Source of the DNA: Chloroflexota bacterium
GTDB taxonomy: Bacteria > Chloroflexota > UBA11872 > VXOZ01
Length of the DNA: 64,000 nt
Direction of reading: 5' to 3'
Assembly (NCBI GenBank): GCA_963662335.2
Contig: CAXXVD010000002.1
Span: 256,001-320,000 of the forward strand
The first letter of the stretch is position 1, and each line of letters opens with the position of its first letter. A program made the position numbers and the translations under genes. Shown here piece by piece: positions 55,014 through 61,511 of the stretch. The notes under the pieces are model-generated. The model was not told the DNA's origin. It was given only the letters and a program-made list of their open reading frames with translations, and made no database searches.

Positions 55014-55256
55014 ATGATTTCAAATGAAGAGCGCCTCGCGCGCATAGAAGGCGGATACGAACACCTGGCCACCAAGGCCGACATCGGCGACGTTAAGGCC
55101 GACATCGCCGCGCTCAACGGCAGGATAGACGCCCTCGAGGCCCGCATAGACGCCGTGGTCGCCGAGTTGCGCATCCACCGCTGGGCGTTGGGCATCTCCA
55201 TTGCCTTGCAGCTTATCATCCTGGCGCGCCTCTTCGAGATCATCCCGCCGGGGTAG
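55014..55256 (+). CDS. small coiled-coil protein with C-terminal TM (DUF1640/CCDC90-like)
   Basis: LATKADI.DVKADI heptads then a hydrophobic tail; AGGAG RBS; TATACT upstream. Confidence 0.65.
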   Translation: MISNEERLARIEGGYEHLATKADIGDVKADIAALNGRIDALEARIDAVVAELRIHRWALGISIALQLIILARLFEIIPPG

Positions 55257-55342
55257 CGCGCGTACCCGCACGCGCGCTACCCCGGCGCCGTTGCCGGTCA
55301 GCCTCCGCGCGATTTTTCCCGTTTTGTTTGGACAAACCCCCC

Positions 55343-55371
55343 TTGCAACCGCTTTTGCCCTTTGCTACACT
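55343..55371 (+). promoter_or_regulatory. upstream tandem promoter of surface-protein gene 1
   Basis: TTGCAA-17 bp-TACACT with extended -10 TG. Confidence 0.65.
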
Positions 55372-55409
55372 AATGTCCGGACTGACAAGCGCGCAGCCGC
55401 GCCTGCCCC

Positions 55410-55438
55410 TTGCGCAGCTTGGAGCAGTCTGCTACACT
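55410..55438 (+). promoter_or_regulatory. promoter of surface-protein gene 1
   Basis: TTGCGC-17 bp-TACACT (TGCTACACT), conserved in all three units. Confidence 0.75.
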
Positions 55439-55444
55439 ACTAAG

Positions 55445-55750
55445 CAGGCTGGCGCAGCGTGCCCACTAGCGGGGACACCCTGGGCACAGCGCAAGTCAGT
55501 CAGGCTCATCTCGTATCAACATACCGTGCTATTGGCGTCAACGGTCGGATCAGCCAATTGATCGCCCTGGTCTGCCACCTGGGGAGTGTGACGTACACCC
55601 ACGATTCCCCCTCAGCGCGGGACAGTCATCTAGAAGAAGGGAGTGTATAGCTACACGCGCCGGAATAGCCCGGTATTTTGGGTGTCTCTTTCGAATGGAT
55701 CCGAACGCCCGCTAACGGTTGAACGGGCGTACAAGTGAAAGGAAAGGACT
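55445..55750 (+). ncRNA. candidate structured 5' leader RNA, copy 1
   Basis: ~300 nt between promoter and GTG; multiple hairpins; compensatory changes relative to copy 2. Confidence 0.55.
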
Positions 55751-57301
55751 GTGAGACAATTGTCTCGTTTGGTGAGCGTGTTCCTCGCGCTCATTTTGAT
55801 GGGCGCCTCGCTGATGGTCGTGGCCGCGGATGATAAAGTTACTACGGGCGCGAATGCTGAAACTCAGGGCTTGGATCATGGCGCCAAGGTCGTCATCTCC
55901 CGCGTTGACACCACGAGCCCCGTGTATCCCGACACTAAGCTGAAGTTCCGGGTACTCATCGTGCGCAGCGGTCATGATATCCCGGGTGTGGCTGCAACGA
56001 CCCTGAAGCGCACTGGCTTGACTGGCGGCGAAGACAAGTCATATCTCATCGGCACGGATTTCTCCGAGGTCGATGATACCCGCACGACGGATAACACCGC
56101 GGACAAGACGAAAGACCTCTTTTCGGCGCGGCCGACGTTCTCCAAGGAGATCGAGTACGTGGTGCTTGGTACCGACTTGGGCGACAACGCAGCCAGCCGC
56201 ACGGTGAACATCCAGTTCACCCTCGCGTTTACCGTGGGTAGTGATGTGCACGTGGTCGAGAGCAATACGGTGCCGGTGCTGGTAGTGAAGAAGCCTAGCG
56301 AGGGCGATGGGTCGTCCGGCGTGACGATGACGTTTGCCGGCGCCGATCCTGAGGAGCGTGTCGCGGGCAAGAAGATCAAGTTCACGTTGACGGCGAGGAC
56401 CGGCAAGTACGGTCTGGGTGCTACCCAGTTGGTGGAGATCATGCGGCAGCGCTACAGCGATGCCGACACGAAGGACGGCGACCCGGTAATCGTCGACTTC
56501 CTCACCATTCCGACGCTGGGAACCAAGGCGGAAAGCGATGAGCAGTCGGTCGAGTACGTCTTGCGGCAAGAGGACATCGACGCGCACAAGGTCGAGTTCT
56601 CGGTCAAGGTCGAGATTGAGCTCGACGACATCCGCAAAGCTGACGGCACTGCCGTTCTTAAGACTGACATTCATGGGTGGACGAAAGACACGCTGGAGGG
56701 CAGTCACGTCTTCATGAGCATGCCTCCGGTGGCGGCGACGCCGAACCCGTATATCTACGAGAATGCCGCGGCGACGGTGACGGAGCTGGCGGGCGGCACG
56801 GCCGTGGAGATTATGCGGAAGGACACAGGGGCGACGATCACGTTGACGGTAGGCACGCTGAGCAGCGCTGGCGCGCTGTTGCCGCGGGACAGCGGGTACA
56901 TTCGCGACGAGAGTCGCGGGCAGACCTACGCGGTGGTGCGGCGGGCGTCGGACAACACGGTCCGGCGTGTGTGGATATCCTCGAACAGCGAGTGGGTGCC
57001 GCACGTGCCGTGGGATAACGTGATAGCGTTCTACAACGTGCCGGCGTCAGTCTTGAACGCGATACCGTTGGACGACACGATGCCTGAAGTCGACCAACTG
57101 GTAGACGCGGCAGGCACGTGGTACGTGTACCGTGATAGAGCGTGGCGGCATATACCCAATCTGTCCACGTTCCGGGCGGAAGGGTTCTACTGGTGCGACT
57201 TGACGACGGCGGACGCCAACCACGCGGCCGCATCGTCGACCGCGACGCCGCTGCCGTCCAAGGTCGGGCCTCCGGCTGCGGGCTACCCGGCGTGCAGGTA
57301 G
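55751..57301 (+). CDS. secreted surface protein, paralog 1 (two Ig-like repeats plus conserved C-terminal domain)
   Basis: Sec signal MRQLSRLVSVFLALILMGASLMVVAA; YV...D repeats; C-terminal GYIRD..GQTYAVVR..FYWCD..YPAC. Confidence 0.85.
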   Translation: MRQLSRLVSVFLALILMGASLMVVAADDKVTTGANAETQGLDHGAKVVISRVDTTSPVYPDTKLKFRVLIVRSGHDIPGVAATTLKRTGLTGGEDKSYLIGTDFSEVDDTRTTDNTADKTKDLFSARPTFSKEIEYVVLGTDLGDNAASRTVNIQFTLAFTVGSDVHVVESNTVPVLVVKKPSEGDGSSGVTMTFAGADPEERVAGKKIKFTLTARTGKYGLGATQLVEIMRQRYSDADTKDGDPVIVDFLTIPTLGTKAESDEQSVEYVLRQEDIDAHKVEFSVKVEIELDDIRKADGTAVLKTDIHGWTKDTLEGSHVFMSMPPVAATPNPYIYENAAATVTELAGGTAVEIMRKDTGATITLTVGTLSSAGALLPRDSGYIRDESRGQTYAVVRRASDNTVRRVWISSNSEWVPHVPWDNVIAFYNVPASVLNAIPLDDTMPEVDQLVDAAGTWYVYRDRAWRHIPNLSTFRAEGFYWCDLTTADANHAAASSTATPLPSKVGPPAAGYPACR

Positions 57302-57340
57302 GCAGGACGCATTGAAGCTGTATGGGCACAACACAAACCC

Positions 57341-57472
57341 TAGAGGTATCAGTGACCGGGAGAGCGAGAGCGTGATGACCGCACGCTAGCGTGCCCGGGG
57401 GGTCTGTACAGTCTCCTTATGCTACGGCGAGAGCCGGTGTCTGTGGCAGGACACCGGCTCTTGTTATTGTCT
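57341..57472 (+). ncRNA. conserved 3' element ending in a terminator, copy 1
   Basis: 132 nt identical to 59449-59580; GCACGCTAGCGTGC palindrome; GAGCCGGTGTC/GACACCGGCTC stem plus T-rich tail. Confidence 0.45.
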
Positions 57473-57494
57473 GTAGAACGGAGCGGCGCGCCCC

Positions 57495-57523
57495 TTGCAT
57501 AGCTTGGGGCAGTCTGCTACACT
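57495..57523 (+). promoter_or_regulatory. promoter of surface-protein gene 2
   Basis: TTGCAT-17 bp-TACACT. Confidence 0.75.
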
Positions 57524-57529
57524 ACTAAG

Positions 57530-57836
57530 CAGGCTGGCGCGGCGCGCGCCCACTAGCTGGGACACCATGGGCGCGGCGGCAGCCGGTCGAGTTCAATTCG
57601 TATCCACATACCGTGCTATTGGCGTCAACGGTCGGATCAGCCAATTGATCGCCCTGGTCTGCCACCTGGGGAGTGTGACGTACACCCACGATTCCCCCAC
57701 AGCGCGGGACAGTCATCTGAAGAAGGGAGTGTATAGCTACACGCGCCGGAATAGCCCGGTATTTTGGGTGTCTCTTTCGAGTGTTTGCGAACGCCCGCTA
57801 ACGGTTGAACGGGCGTACAAGTGAAAGGAAAGGACT
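57530..57836 (+). ncRNA. candidate structured 5' leader RNA, copy 2
   Basis: homologous to 55445-55750 with covarying stems. Confidence 0.55.
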
Positions 57837-59408
57837 GTGAGACAATTGTCTCGTTTGGTGAGCGTCTTCCTGGCGCTCATTTTGATGGGTGCCTCGCTGA
57901 TGGTCGTGGCCGCGGATGATAAAGTTACTACGGGCGCGAATGCTGAAACTCAGGGCTTGGATCATGGCGCCAAGGTTGTCATCTCTCGCGTTGACACCGA
58001 AAGCCCCGTGTATCCCGGTACTGAACTGAAGTTCCGGGTACTCATTGTGAGAAGCGGCCACGATGTTAGGGGTACCGCCGCTGCTACCTACTTGGAGCGC
58101 ACTGGTGTAACTGCCGGCACTAAGTATATCGATGGCGACGATTTCACCGAGCACAACGATGGCCGCACGACCGCTGAGGCAGATAAGACGAAAGACCTCA
58201 CCGAAAAGGCGCCGACGTTCTCCACGGAGTTCAAGTACAAGGTGAGCGACGGCGACTTGGGCGATAACGCGGCCAACCGTACGGTGGACATCCAGTTTAC
58301 TCTCACGTTTCTCGCAACCGCGATGGATGCAGATGGAAATAGAACTAACGCGGAAACGCATGCGGTCACGAGCAATACGGTGCCGGTGCTGGTAGAGAAG
58401 AAGCCTAACGAGGGCGCGGGGTCGTCCGGTGTGACGATGACGTTTGCCGGCGCCGATCCTGACGAGCTTGCCGCGGGCAAGAAGATCAAGTTCACGTTGA
58501 CGGCGAGGACCGGCAAGTACGGTCTGGGTGCTACGAAGTTGGTGGAGATCATGCGGCAGCGCTACAGCGATGCCGACACGAAGGACGGCGACCCGGTTAC
58601 CGTCAACTTCCTCACCATTCCGACGCTGGAAACCGATTCGGTAAGCAATGAGGAGTCGGTCGAGTACGTCTTGCGGCAGGAGGACATCGACGCGCACAAG
58701 GTCGAGTTCTCGGTCAAGGTCGAGATTGAGCTCGACGACATCCGCAAAGCTGACGGCACTGCCGTTCTTAAGACTGACATTCATGGGTGGACGAAAGACA
58801 CGCTGGAGGGCAGTCACGTCTTCATGAGCATGCCTCCGGTGGCGGCGACGCCGAGCCCGTATCTCTACGAGACTGACGCGGCGACGGTGATGGAGCTGGC
58901 GGGCGGCGGGGCCATCGAGCTTACCCGGAAGGACACCGGGTCGACGATTACCCTGACGCTGGGCACGCTGAGCAGCGCCGGCGCGTTGTTGCCGCGGGAC
59001 AGCGGCTACATTCGCGACGAGAGCCGCGGGCAGACCTACGCGGTGGTGCGGACGTCGGACAACACGGTACGGCGTGTGTGGATTTCCTCGAGCAGCGAGT
59101 GGGTGCCGCACGTGCCGTGGGCGAACGTGATTGCGTTCTACAACGTGCCGGCAGCGGTCTTGAACGCGATACCGTTGGACGACACGATGCCTGAAGTCGA
59201 CCAACTGGTTGCGGTGGACGGCGTGTGGTACGTGTACCGTGATCGAGCGTGGCGGCACATACCGAACCTGTCCACGTTCCGTGCGGAAGGGTTCTACTGG
59301 TGCGACTTGACGACTGCGGACAGCAGCCACGCAGCGGCATCGTCGACCGCGACGCCGCTTCCGTCCAGGGTAGGGCCTCCGGCTGAGGGCTACCCGGCGT
59401 GCAGGTAG
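57837..59408 (+). CDS. secreted surface protein, paralog 2
   Basis: identical N-terminus and several identical blocks with paralog 1. Confidence 0.85.
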   Translation: MRQLSRLVSVFLALILMGASLMVVAADDKVTTGANAETQGLDHGAKVVISRVDTESPVYPGTELKFRVLIVRSGHDVRGTAAATYLERTGVTAGTKYIDGDDFTEHNDGRTTAEADKTKDLTEKAPTFSTEFKYKVSDGDLGDNAANRTVDIQFTLTFLATAMDADGNRTNAETHAVTSNTVPVLVEKKPNEGAGSSGVTMTFAGADPDELAAGKKIKFTLTARTGKYGLGATKLVEIMRQRYSDADTKDGDPVTVNFLTIPTLETDSVSNEESVEYVLRQEDIDAHKVEFSVKVEIELDDIRKADGTAVLKTDIHGWTKDTLEGSHVFMSMPPVAATPSPYLYETDAATVMELAGGGAIELTRKDTGSTITLTLGTLSSAGALLPRDSGYIRDESRGQTYAVVRTSDNTVRRVWISSSSEWVPHVPWANVIAFYNVPAAVLNAIPLDDTMPEVDQLVAVDGVWYVYRDRAWRHIPNLSTFRAEGFYWCDLTTADSSHAAASSTATPLPSRVGPPAEGYPACR

Positions 59409-59448
59409 GGAAGGACGCATTGAAGCTGTATGGGCGCATCACAGACCA

Positions 59449-59580
59449 TAGAGGTATCAGTGACCGGGAGAGCGAGAGCGTGATGACCGCACGCTAGCGT
59501 GCCCGGGGGGTCTGTACAGTCTCCTTATGCTACGGCGAGAGCCGGTGTCTGTGGCAGGACACCGGCTCTTGTTATTGTCT
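59449..59580 (+). ncRNA. conserved 3' element ending in a terminator, copy 2
   Basis: identical to 57341-57472. Confidence 0.45.
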
Positions 59581-59602
59581 TTGGAACGGCGGGGCGCGCC
59601 CC

Positions 59603-59631
59603 TTGCAGCGCGGGTAGCGCTCTGCTACACT
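59603..59631 (+). promoter_or_regulatory. promoter of surface-protein gene 3
   Basis: TTGCAG-17 bp-TACACT. Confidence 0.72.
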
Positions 59632-59637
59632 TTTAAC

Positions 59638-59939
59638 GAAGACCGACCAGCGTACACCCCACTGCTGAGCGGCGCGGATAGCGCGGGGGCGCCATGAAGG
59701 CCAACGAGACGTGTTCTGCATTGGCGTGCCGCGCTCCTGGCGCCACCGGCCAGGTCGGTAGCGATTTCCCCTAAGCCGCCCGAGACTGCGACGCATACTG
59801 ATGATTCCGCCTCAGCGCGGGATAGCCTCCAAGAAGGGAGCGCGTCTGCCCACCGAAACCGCCCGGAATTGTGTCTCTCTTTCCAGCTTTTGCCAGCCGC
59901 TTCACGGAAGCGGACGGTCTAGTGAAAGGATAAGGAACT
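59638..59939 (+). ncRNA. candidate structured 5' leader RNA, diverged copy 3
   Basis: same length; retains ATTGGCGT, GATTCC..CTCAGCGCGGGA.AG, AGAAGGGAG, GCCCGG.ATT, GTGTCTCT, AGTGAAAGGA. Confidence 0.45.
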
Positions 59940-61511
59940 GTGGCCCCCCTGTCTCGTTTGTTGAGCGTCTTCCTGGCGCTTATTTTGATGGGTCTATCAC
60001 TGGCGACCGCGTCGGCAGGGGATAATCACCCCGCGAAGAGCACGTACGGCGCTACGGTATCGCTTTCCCGTATCGACTCCACAGCCGCGGACAAGATACA
60101 CGTGGGGACGGCATTGCAGTTCCGCGTCTTCGTCAGACGGGGCGACCATGATATTCGTGCCGGTACCACGGTGTTCGGCGTGACGCGCGGCAGCTCTCTC
60201 ACCGCGGTCATCCCTGGTGACCCTAATGACCCTAATGACGGTGTGACGGCGAGCAATAGCCTCGTCTCCATGACGATCGACTACGTCGTTGCGGAAGGTG
60301 ATCTGGGCAATGCGGCGCGGCGCCTCGTTCCCTTCCAGGTACAGATGAGCTTTACGCCTGATCCTAGTAAATATACCGGGACTCATCCTGAAGCCACGGT
60401 CATGAGCAACATAATTGGCGTTTTCGTAACGAAGAGACCGGGCTCGGGCGATACCTCTTCGGGCGTAACCTTGGCGTTTGGTATCACTGAGCCGGATACG
60501 ATTGCCGTGGGGAAACAGGTCGGGTTCAGGCTGCGGGTGTCCACAAGCAAGTACGGGCTGCTTGGGAACAGTTTGATAATCCAGAAGCAGCTCTATGACG
60601 CTAACGGCGCCAAGAAGGGCGCGGCGAAGACCGTCACGCTGTTCGGCATTCCGCATCTTCTGAAAGGGGCAGTGAGCGAGGAGCAATCGCAGTCCTACAC
60701 GCTGCAAAAGGAAGACGTGGATGCCGGCGCCGGCCGGGTCGAGTTCTTCTATAGGTGGGTAGTCGAAGATTCGCACCTGCTGGACGCCAATGGGTCGCCT
60801 ACGGATGATCTCCGTGACGACTTCAGCCAGGTCTTCACGCGCAGTCATTTTCTGGGCGGAGCGCCGCCAACGCCGACACCGACACCTGCGGCCAGGGCTA
60901 CGGCGACACCGACGCCTGTGACGACAGTAGTCGGGAGGACGAGCGCGGCGACGGTTACGATTCGAGGGGCTCACCACGTCCACGTGGACCGGCGTGACGG
61001 GGGTCGGGACTTCGTCCTGGCGCTCGGTTATCTTGCGCCCAACGGCGCTCGCGGCTTCAATCCGCGCGGCTACATCCGCGACGGTGAGTCCCAGGGCCGA
61101 GGCGGCCAGACCTACGCCGTGGTGCGGCGCGAGGCGGACCAAGAGATCGTGCGCATCTGGATATCCCCCGAAAGCCCCGAGCGGGGCGAGGTGCCGTGGG
61201 ATACCGTGAAACTGCCGCCCTACACGGTGCCGGTGGGCGTCTTGAGCGCCATCAAGCTGGATGAGACGCGTCCGGTGGAGAACCAATTGGCGCGCCGCTT
61301 CGACGAGCGCAGCGATGGACGCATCTTCGTGTTCCGGAACAACGCCTGGCATTGGATCCCCGATATTCCCACGTTCGAGGCAGAGGGCTTCTATTGGTGC
61401 GACGTGACCGCGGCGGACGTCGACTTCTTCAGCCGCGCCAATATCGGAACTCCTTTGCCAAGCAGCGGCACCGCGAAAGACCCGAACTATCCGAATTGCC
61501 ACTCCAAGTAA
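59940..61511 (+). CDS. secreted surface protein, paralog 3 (diverged, with Pro/Thr linker)
   Basis: signal LSRLLSVFLALILMG, YTLQKEDVDAG, PTPTPTP linker, same C-terminal domain (FYWCD...YPNC). Confidence 0.85.
   Translation: MAPLSRLLSVFLALILMGLSLATASAGDNHPAKSTYGATVSLSRIDSTAADKIHVGTALQFRVFVRRGDHDIRAGTTVFGVTRGSSLTAVIPGDPNDPNDGVTASNSLVSMTIDYVVAEGDLGNAARRLVPFQVQMSFTPDPSKYTGTHPEATVMSNIIGVFVTKRPGSGDTSSGVTLAFGITEPDTIAVGKQVGFRLRVSTSKYGLLGNSLIIQKQLYDANGAKKGAAKTVTLFGIPHLLKGAVSEEQSQSYTLQKEDVDAGAGRVEFFYRWVVEDSHLLDANGSPTDDLRDDFSQVFTRSHFLGGAPPTPTPTPAARATATPTPVTTVVGRTSAATVTIRGAHHVHVDRRDGGRDFVLALGYLAPNGARGFNPRGYIRDGESQGRGGQTYAVVRREADQEIVRIWISPESPERGEVPWDTVKLPPYTVPVGVLSAIKLDETRPVENQLARRFDERSDGRIFVFRNNAWHWIPDIPTFEAEGFYWCDVTAADVDFFSRANIGTPLPSSGTAKDPNYPNCHSK

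Follow-up and report, generated by a model that had tools for sequence, protein, structure and literature searches.

The leaders of Escherichia coli ompA and of Bacillus subtilis aprE and ermC carry 5'-terminal stem-loops that act as stabilisers, those of Thermus slpA and Aeromonas vapA are stabilising 5' untranslated regions (UTRs) of the S-layer type, and to our knowledge post-transcriptional control in Chloroflexota has hardly been described. Here we describe a noncoding leader of about 310 nucleotides (nt) that stands before each of three tandem genes for putatively secreted proteins in a 64,000-nt stretch of a Chloroflexota genome (contig CAXXVD010000002.1, positions 256,001 to 320,000; hereafter the window). 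We read this leader, with a probability of roughly 0.45, as a stabilising, expression-tuning 5' UTR that would combine a 5' hairpin with a ribosome dock resembling the STAB-SD of Bacillus thuringiensis.

The STAB-SD lies at about -125 in the 5' UTRs of cry3A and cry3C (Agaisse & Lereclus 1996, as cited in PMC12970973), and ribosomes bound to it are described in that same account as blocking RNase J on cry3A mRNA (PMC12970973). A 5' UTR stem-loop is described as stabilising the S-layer slpA mRNA of Lactobacillus (PMC10221546), and pairing between 5' and 3' UTRs is described for Staphylococcus aureus icaR and B. subtilis hbs (PMC3868564, PMC5737220). An earlier note on this DNA had proposed a structured RNA of about 300 nt, either a riboswitch or a stabilising leader of the S-layer type; of these two options the second fits the evidence better, and the riboswitch is not supported.

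A leader confined to one lineage

The three paralogous genes belong to a 3.2-Mb assembly that is 96% complete, and encode proteins of 516, 523 and 523 amino acids. Each is preceded by a promoter-like motif in which TTGCnn and TACACT are separated by 17 nt, with a TG one base 5' of the -10 element, and the distance from this motif to the GTG start codon is about 310 nt in all three cases, as the earlier note had observed. The same promoter is conserved at the same place before every leader, relatives included. Because the motif occurs 12 times in the genome (against none for a reversed control) and only four of these occurrences fall at this locus, it is a general, strong promoter type that is not peculiar to this gene family. 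Since each gene has its own promoter, and genes 1 and 2 end in a conserved 3' UTR with a terminator, every gene looks like its own transcription unit. The features of the locus are as follows, with z values expressing predicted folding stability relative to dinucleotide shuffles.

55343 to 55371, plus strand: remnant of an extra promoter (promoter pattern match and comparison with the upstream copies of other species)
55410 to 55438, plus strand: gene 1 promoter, TTGCGC, 17 nt, TACACT, with TG before the -10 (pattern match; conserved position)
55443 to 55505, plus strand: 5' hairpin domain of leader 1, an outer stem CUGGC/GUCAG and an inner GC-rich stem (minimum free energy -31.4 kcal/mol, z -2.23; covariation across 16 leaders)
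55511 to 55687, plus strand: conserved core of leader 1 (alignment A3; z -0.08)
55634 to 55643, plus strand: Shine-Dalgarno-like AAGAAGGGAG in core 1 (predicted duplex with the 16S tail -12.9 kcal/mol; no start codon 3-13 nt downstream)
55706 to 55729, plus strand: optional hairpin CGCCCG...CGGGCG 5' of the ribosome site, leader 1 (5 of 8 pairs changed on both sides)
55737 to 55767, plus strand: ribosome site GAAAGGAAAGGA, GTG at 55751 and GAGAC/GUCUC start hairpin (predicted duplex with the 16S tail -10.5 kcal/mol; helix 98.1% paired and nearly invariant)
55751 to 57301, plus strand: gene 1, a 516-residue beta-rich protein, likely secreted (open reading frame and homology; no family match)
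57302 to 57478, plus strand: conserved 3' UTR of gene 1, with a 17-bp terminator hairpin at 57426-57465 (terminator prediction, alignment)
57495 to 57523, plus strand: gene 2 promoter (pattern match)
57528 to 57592, plus strand: 5' hairpin domain of leader 2 (minimum free energy -39.5 kcal/mol, z -2.71; covariation)
57598 to 57773, plus strand: conserved core of leader 2, with AAGAAGGGAG at 57720-57729 (alignment, z -0.73; predicted 16S duplex)
57792 to 57853, plus strand: 3' part of leader 2, with the optional hairpin at 57792-57815, ribosome site at 57823-57834, GTG at 57837 and start hairpin (sequence and helix alignment)
57837 to 59408, plus strand: gene 2, a 523-residue paralogue 84% identical to gene 1
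59409 to 59585, plus strand: conserved 3' UTR of gene 2, with a terminator hairpin at 59534-59573 (terminator prediction; RNA contig ends at 59534-59536)
59603 to 59631, plus strand: gene 3 promoter (pattern match)
59632 to 59939, plus strand: leader 3, type B and diverged, with core at 59716-59878, AAGAAGGGAG at 59821-59830 and a hairpin at 59897-59913 (whole-leader z +0.88; its 5' domain folds poorly, z +0.33)
59940 to 61511, plus strand: gene 3, a 523-residue paralogue 42% identical to gene 2

A recurrent noncoding leader before each gene had been claimed from the window alone, and it proves to be real: a BLASTN search with leader 2 as query returns it from 10 of 17 species in a single uncultured Chloroflexota genus, the window genome included (best matches at 79-89% identity), and 26 full copies can be aligned (alignment A2). 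The window genome itself holds three copies only, by BLASTN and by the core model. The neighbouring DegT aminotransferase gene is 85-90% identical to that of the window in the ten leader-bearing species and 81-84% identical in the seven leaderless ones, so the leader marks a subclade of the genus. Each copy precedes a member of one protein family or a shorter protein with the same N-terminal signal and C-terminal domain. In a genome collection, a strict two-block pattern matched 18 stretches, 14 of them true leaders that all come from Chloroflexota metagenome-assembled genome (MAG) records; the four matches from other phyla fail the leader profile and were set aside as chance. Eight metagenome stretches also matched this pattern, of which two are true leaders, near-identical to known copies and adding no diversity. 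A sequence-only model built on the core was run over 98 genomes from the class and recovered the ten genus members and one marginal match (E 0.0025, 19.1 bits) that we take as chance. The earlier failure to recognise a known RNA family is borne out by Rfam 15, which gave no matches at gathering thresholds over the 64-kb window and, at E<=10 over 55200-60100, only four matches to microRNA families (E 1.4-8.8, 16.8-21.9 bits against cut-offs of 68-112). We regard the leader as a cis-acting element specific to this lineage. Its general importance is limited by a narrow range: 10 species, in which 26 full copies could be aligned beside a few others that are diverged or partial.

Three types of leader can be told apart: type A, to which copies 1 and 2 belong; type B, represented by copy 3 and carrying extra inserted hairpins; and type C, found before the shorter proteins. 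Copies 1 and 2 are 92-93% identical. Copy 3, which the earlier note had described as very diverged in sequence with length and ordered motifs retained, does align with them over its full length (alignment A1, mean column identity 82%), but its ATTGGCGT is displaced upstream by about 16 nt relative to that of copies 1 and 2, with CCTGGCGC at the homologous place. Similarly, the doubled AGC..GGGACA motif is present in copies 1 and 2 as had been said but is peculiar to them and not retained in other species.

Conservation is distributed very unevenly along the leader. Among type A orthologues of the ten species, mean identity is 65% in the 5' hairpin domain, 91% (range 85-99%) in the core of about 175 nt, 44% in the spacer that holds the optional hairpin, and 93% over the ribosome site and first codons. 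The core of copy 2 is 86-90% identical to the type A cores of other species. The mean core identity is comparable to the 85-90% of the neighbouring DegT gene in the same species, and the proteins encoded downstream are only 39-56% identical over full-length matches. Because the core is about as conserved as an enzyme gene while its own flanks drift, the pattern points to purifying selection on the core itself and not to recent transfer or blanket gene conversion. A coding function was rejected, as none of the six frames checked is consistently open across the leader, and the core carries 1-nt indels.

Two further elements recur around the core. The GAGAC/GUCUC start hairpin (55752-55767 and 57838-57853) overlaps the last two bases of the GTG and codons 2-6. 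Even at third codon positions its nucleotides hardly vary in 25 of the 26 leaders; in copy 3 the 5' arm is missing. Upstream of the first gene's own promoter, eight other species carry an additional promoter followed by an incomplete leader of about 190 nt (the 'up' element). The 'up' element spans the hairpin domain and the core's first half (for example, L042 1212-1398 and L006 1016-1168), could act as a separate small RNA (sRNA) or decoy, and is represented in the window genome by the promoter remnant alone.

A covarying hairpin, a Shine-Dalgarno-like site and a core with no covariation beyond shuffles

The 5' domain of types A and C folds as a single bipartite hairpin, with z at or below -2.2 in 9 of the 15 domains folded. 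In 16 leaders of these two types, 95.4% of cells are paired, and 5 of the 15 pairs are changed on both sides, compared with 2.0 +/- 0.9 in shuffles, where 1 of 500 reached that number; none of 500 shuffles attained the covariation score, 0.254 against 0.195. This hairpin is genuine, with its fold kept while its sequence varies. The compensatory differences between copies 1 and 2 that had first drawn attention to the locus, in which GTGCCCA/TGGGCAC (55459-65/55481-87) becomes GCGCCCA/TGGGCGC (57546-52/57568-74), are correctly placed and form part of this domain. The accompanying change from GGG-GACA-CCC to TGG-GACA-CCA is also real, but GACA, with C as its third base, is not the GNRA loop it was taken for. 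The hairpin before the ribosome site behaves in a similar manner in that its sequence changes and the hairpin stays, although 5 of the 26 leaders do without it.

The other element on which our reading rests is a near-invariant AAGAAGGGAG in the core, with linkers on either side that differ in length among leaders. In this genome the 16S ribosomal RNA (rRNA) has the 3' terminus ...GGAUCACCUCCUUUCU, and the best 12-nt windows over AAGAAGGGAG begin 90-140 nt 5' of the start codon, in the same alignment columns, in all 26 leaders. The predicted duplex between AAGAAGGGAG and the 16S tail has an energy of -12.3 to -13.1 kcal/mol in 24 of them, and that of the true ribosome site is weaker, at a predicted -9.4 to -11.0 kcal/mol. 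Type A leaders have a second Shine-Dalgarno-like site, GGGGAGUGUGA, with a predicted -12.3 kcal/mol. Furthermore, the AAGAAGGGAG island is the least-paired block in the predicted ensembles (0.47 vs 0.63 overall). No start codon follows AAGAAGGGAG at 3-13 nt in 12 leaders, including all three window copies and every type B leader. An ATG stands 7-9 nt after it in 13 leaders, opening a frame of 5 codons in ten and of 21-26 codons in three, which are the three type C leaders; in one leader the ATG after AAGAAGGGAG is followed immediately by a stop. The mini-protein would be MHAPE in nine leaders and MHAPA in one (for example, L069 5833-6173 and L077 5162-5505, both minus strand). Because an ATG is so placed in 13 of 26 leaders, this arrangement suggests that ribosomes really bind at the upstream site. 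The genome encodes RNase J (599.8 bits, cut-off 400), and neither RNase E/G nor CsrA was found in it at 96% completeness; CsrA-type control, a candidate we considered, was rejected given that no CsrA was found in the genome.

Evidence on transcription comes from contigs of three metatranscriptome runs that contain pieces of a relative, from libraries that may contain DNA. A 540-nt contig runs unbroken from 55608, inside the core, past the start codon to 55813 and on, and 55560 is the point from which other RNA-library contigs extend. In each of the three runs there are contigs that stop at the base of the gene 2 terminator, at 59534-59536. These observations fit a leader that is transcribed together with its gene, although contigs do not reveal where a transcript starts. 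Most of leaders 2 and 3 has no contig on it, from which we infer nothing.

We propose that each gene would be expressed from a sigma-70-type promoter with an extended -10, giving an mRNA in which a leader of about 310 nt precedes the coding sequence and a strong terminator closes a conserved 3' UTR. At the predicted 5' end, the stable bipartite hairpin would hinder 5'-end-dependent decay, while one or two strong Shine-Dalgarno-like sequences located 90-170 nt 5' of the start, the invariant AAGAAGGGAG and in type A also GGGGAGUGUGA, would dock the 30S subunit. In leaders that have an ATG with a five-codon frame (10 of 26), the docked ribosome may translate the mini-ORF (open reading frame), and ribosomes bound in this way would block the 5'-to-3' exonuclease RNase J. 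Because the core is far more conserved than a stabilising mechanism requires, the rest of it would probably also bind a sequence-specific partner, which might be a protein, an sRNA or the 3' UTR. The leader probably does not sense a ligand.

It was the core that failed to behave as the earlier proposal had anticipated. Its helices show no covariation beyond shuffles (92.6% vs 92.7% paired; score 0.154 vs 0.158, with 367 of 500 shuffles as high; one pair changed on both sides vs 1.2 in shuffles), in a test whose power is low since the core hardly varies. Judged by the refuting condition that the earlier note had set, a want of significant covariation, the riboswitch reading fails for the core, subject to that low power. 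Its folding stability does not exceed that of dinucleotide shuffles across 15 cores (z -1.48 to +2.67, mean +0.18), and whole-leader z values of -1.25 and +0.88 indicate no clear excess either. Thus, a single structured RNA of about 300 nt is not supported. Among the additional hairpins that had been listed, GATCA/TGATC, GTGTA/TACAC and CCGG/CCGG show no compensatory change beyond shuffles, and GTGTA/TACAC is not retained in the type of copy 3 (74% of cells paired). The covariation excess of the whole structure is marginal; consensus folding of the whole leader and of each type gave weak, inconsistent structures; only local hairpins survive in averaged pair probabilities; and an all-against-all helix scan returned no clean long-range helix. 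The candidate long-range helices CCGUGC/GCGCGG and CUCCCU/AGGGAG, with no pair changed on both sides, were discarded. The case for a riboswitch also falters on the expression platform, as neither a terminator nor an element sequestering the ribosome site is conserved across leaders. The window copies have a terminator-like GCCGG...CCCGG followed by a U run (55659-55674 and 57745-57760), but the U run is lost in other species and in type B, and transcription attenuation was rejected for that reason. Masking of the ribosome site by CUCUUUC was rejected because that sequence is not conserved, as was phase variation through Dam and GATC because three species do not retain the GATC pair.

Several observations weigh against a stabilising leader. 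It leaves some 175 nt at 91% identity unexplained. Type B 5' domains, that of copy 3 included, are not unusually stable (z +0.33, -0.60, -1.54 and -1.11), and the upstream Shine-Dalgarno-like site is weakened in two type C leaders (AGGUAGGGAG, -8.3 kcal/mol). Sites at or below -12 kcal/mol arise by chance at about 0.26 per 310 nt (53 in 64 kb on this strand), and for this reason the argument from the Shine-Dalgarno-like site rests on its conservation and not on its presence. The RNA contigs come from a relative and possibly from DNA, none of them covers 55367-55533, and the 5' end is predicted from the promoter.

Competing explanations for the conserved core

What, then, accounts for the unusual conservation of the core? 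It may be a new structured regulatory RNA, a riboswitch aptamer or protein-binding fold with helices too conserved to covary, which would suit a very well conserved primary sequence flanked by fast-evolving leader parts and, as Rfam has no match, would be new. In the short helices that we drew as candidates, 85-98% of cells are paired, as opposed to 35-50% with slid partners, a control biased by the fact that the helices were drawn from the same sequences, and most variable helix positions switch between G-U and Watson-Crick pairs (pair 151-165: AU in 8, GU in 13, GC in 4). We nonetheless find this doubtful given the covariation and folding results above, which extend to long-range alternatives, and given that helix registers differ among the three leader types, that the best hairpin appears by eye to be broken in the diverged copy before the third gene of relative G001 and in the upstream partial copies, and that no expression platform is conserved, the U run of the window copies being lost in other species. 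A broader proposal, which we entertain tentatively and would not call probable, is that the core is an undescribed regulatory RNA module with a dedicated partner, be it a protein, an sRNA from the 3' UTR or a ligand, and that together with the docking sites and the decoy-like 'up' element it co-ordinates a rapidly diversifying secreted family. Alternatively, conservation may act on the DNA, as operator or architectural sites between promoter and start. Sequence conservation without folding stability or covariation would be expected of such sites, the core does contain short inverted repeats (GATCA/TGATC, CCGG...CCGG), and tandem promoters lie upstream in most species. We consider this unlikely, however, because about 175 contiguous bases at 91% identity far exceed a typical operator, the island with the highest conservation is complementary to the tail of the 16S rRNA, and the core is included in RNA-library contigs. 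Moreover, the inverted repeats tolerate changes of the G-U type that are meaningful only if this strand is read as RNA (GGUC/GAUC), and the GATC pair becomes GGTC/GACC in three species.

Two other explanations look beyond the core to the ends of the transcription unit. Between genes 1 and 2 and their counterparts in the other nine species, 3' UTR identity is 82-92%. About 75 nt of this UTR do not vary among type A genes, whatever the species; they take in an anti-Shine-Dalgarno-like CUCCUU together with the terminator hairpin in full, including its loop. In principle, the leader, signal-peptide codons, C-terminal domain and 3' UTR could be the flanks of a recombination cassette kept similar by gene conversion. 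This would agree with conservation of both ends of the transcription unit around proteins whose N-terminal two-thirds diverge, with one relative that matches at 85% over residues 330-523 only, with the cross-species identity of the 3' UTR, with copies 1 and 2 that are near-identical in leader core and 3' half and differ in the middle, and with the joints between paralogues in DNA contigs described below. Yet conversion would homogenise the whole leader, and here a hairpin at 65% and a spacer at 44% flank a core at 91%; the three leader types also remain distinct across species, and compensatory changes in the hairpin show selection on RNA, so that we regard a cassette as quite improbable. We give still less credence to translation control by pairing of the ribosome site and start with the 3' UTR, whether in cis or through a 3'-UTR-derived sRNA shared by the paralogues, for which icaR and hbs offer precedent as those cases are presented in PMC3868564 and PMC5737220. 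The predicted duplex of 57815-57856 with the 3' UTR reaches -28.4 kcal/mol, against -21.9 +/- 3.0 both for shuffles and for 330 genomic windows (energies this low make up fractions of 0.029 and 0.021, respectively), and the 3' UTR contains the invariant stretch with CUCCUU and terminator. The energy excess, however, is only about 2 standard deviations, a duplex of whole leader with whole 3' UTR is no better than shuffles (0.355), and both partners are invariant, leaving no covariation signal to read. Inspected by eye, type C leaders and their 3' UTRs do not change in a compensatory way, the motif is absent from the 3' UTR of copy 3, and the core would be left unexplained.

Encoded proteins, neighbouring features and known systems

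The proteins encoded behind the leader begin with a signal-peptide-like N-terminus and are likely secreted; a place at the surface is plausible but, like membership of an S-layer, unproven. No Pfam or NCBIfam family matches the protein. A search of 5.8 billion proteins yielded 20 homologues, none named beyond 'hypothetical', and the two with a source name are Chloroflexota/Chloroflexi MAG records; among 61 genomes searched, full-length relatives occur in this genus only. An AlphaFold model is beta-rich (predicted local distance difference test, pLDDT, 73.8; predicted template modelling score, pTM, 0.36) and matches multi-domain beta-sandwich proteins at low template modelling (TM) scores only (TM on query <= 0.19). 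In a protein-atlas search, the C-terminal domain retrieved unnamed clusters only, with a best score of <= 0.88. This domain of about 190 residues also ends three giant open frames of 2660-2954 residues outside the window in the same genome (G000 C3 285068-285655, 294806-295390 and 305418-305993) and occurs in many proteins of other genera of the class, none of which is preceded by the leader. Behind one relative's leader the gene is split over three frames (L050 1736-3161), as a broken family member or an assembly error.

Two observations concern the DNA around the leaders. A perfect GC-rich palindrome at 55246-55287, which surfaced as weak microRNA-like Rfam matches, lies directly after a small coiled-coil ORF (55014-55256) and is probably its terminator. 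Contigs from DNA runs join gene 1 to gene 2 at homologous places (56165-58365 and 57214-59417), skipping about 2.1-2.2 kb, which suggests strain variants with one gene copy fewer or assembly collapse of the repeat.

Our findings bear on the broader matter of gene expression in uncultured Chloroflexota, for which the leader offers a concrete handle with separable modules: a covarying hairpin, invariant docking sequences, the core and the 3' UTR. If it is indeed a stabiliser, the logic of STAB-SD and 5' hairpin known from Firmicutes would extend to another phylum with RNase J, and a natural high-expression cassette would be supplied. If the core has a partner of its own, it would represent a new regulatory RNA tied to secreted proteins with fast-evolving exposed parts.

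Among known systems, the riboswitches and cis-regulatory leaders of Rfam 15 share with this leader a position in the 5' UTR, repetition before related genes and a highly conserved core. Unlike them, it has no family match, no covarying core helices and no conserved expression platform, and its range is one subclade of one genus. It resembles icaR and hbs, so far as the accounts cited above describe them, in a conserved 3' UTR with an anti-Shine-Dalgarno-like CUCCUU that is predicted to pair with the ribosome-site region, and differs from them in that here a weak predicted energy excess is all that speaks for such pairing.

The stabilising leaders are closer relatives in design. This leader is unlike those of ompA, aprE and ermC in that its 5' end is predicted from the promoter only, and like them in placing a hairpin within a few nucleotides of that end, with the fold kept while the sequence drifts. 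By comparison with Lactobacillus slpA as presented in the source cited above, it is two to three times longer and mostly conserved in sequence without a detectable fold, and its proteins are at most putative S-layer components; in common with slpA, it is a long leader before the gene of a predicted secreted or envelope protein (an abundant one in the case of slpA), with a stable stem-loop near the 5' end and a strong promoter. The nearest parallel is the STAB-SD of cry3A. The two share no sequence homology and belong to different phyla, and the site described here sits within some 175 nt of conserved core, shares its leader with a 5'-terminal hairpin, is followed by an ATG in half of the leaders, and is only predicted to stabilise. 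What they have in common, to the extent that the cry3 leaders are described in the account cited, is a strong Shine-Dalgarno-like site far 5' of the start (about -125 in cry3A and cry3C, about -90 to -140 here), a long leader in a host with RNase J and, in the window copies, a site that does not start the main protein and has no start codon after it.

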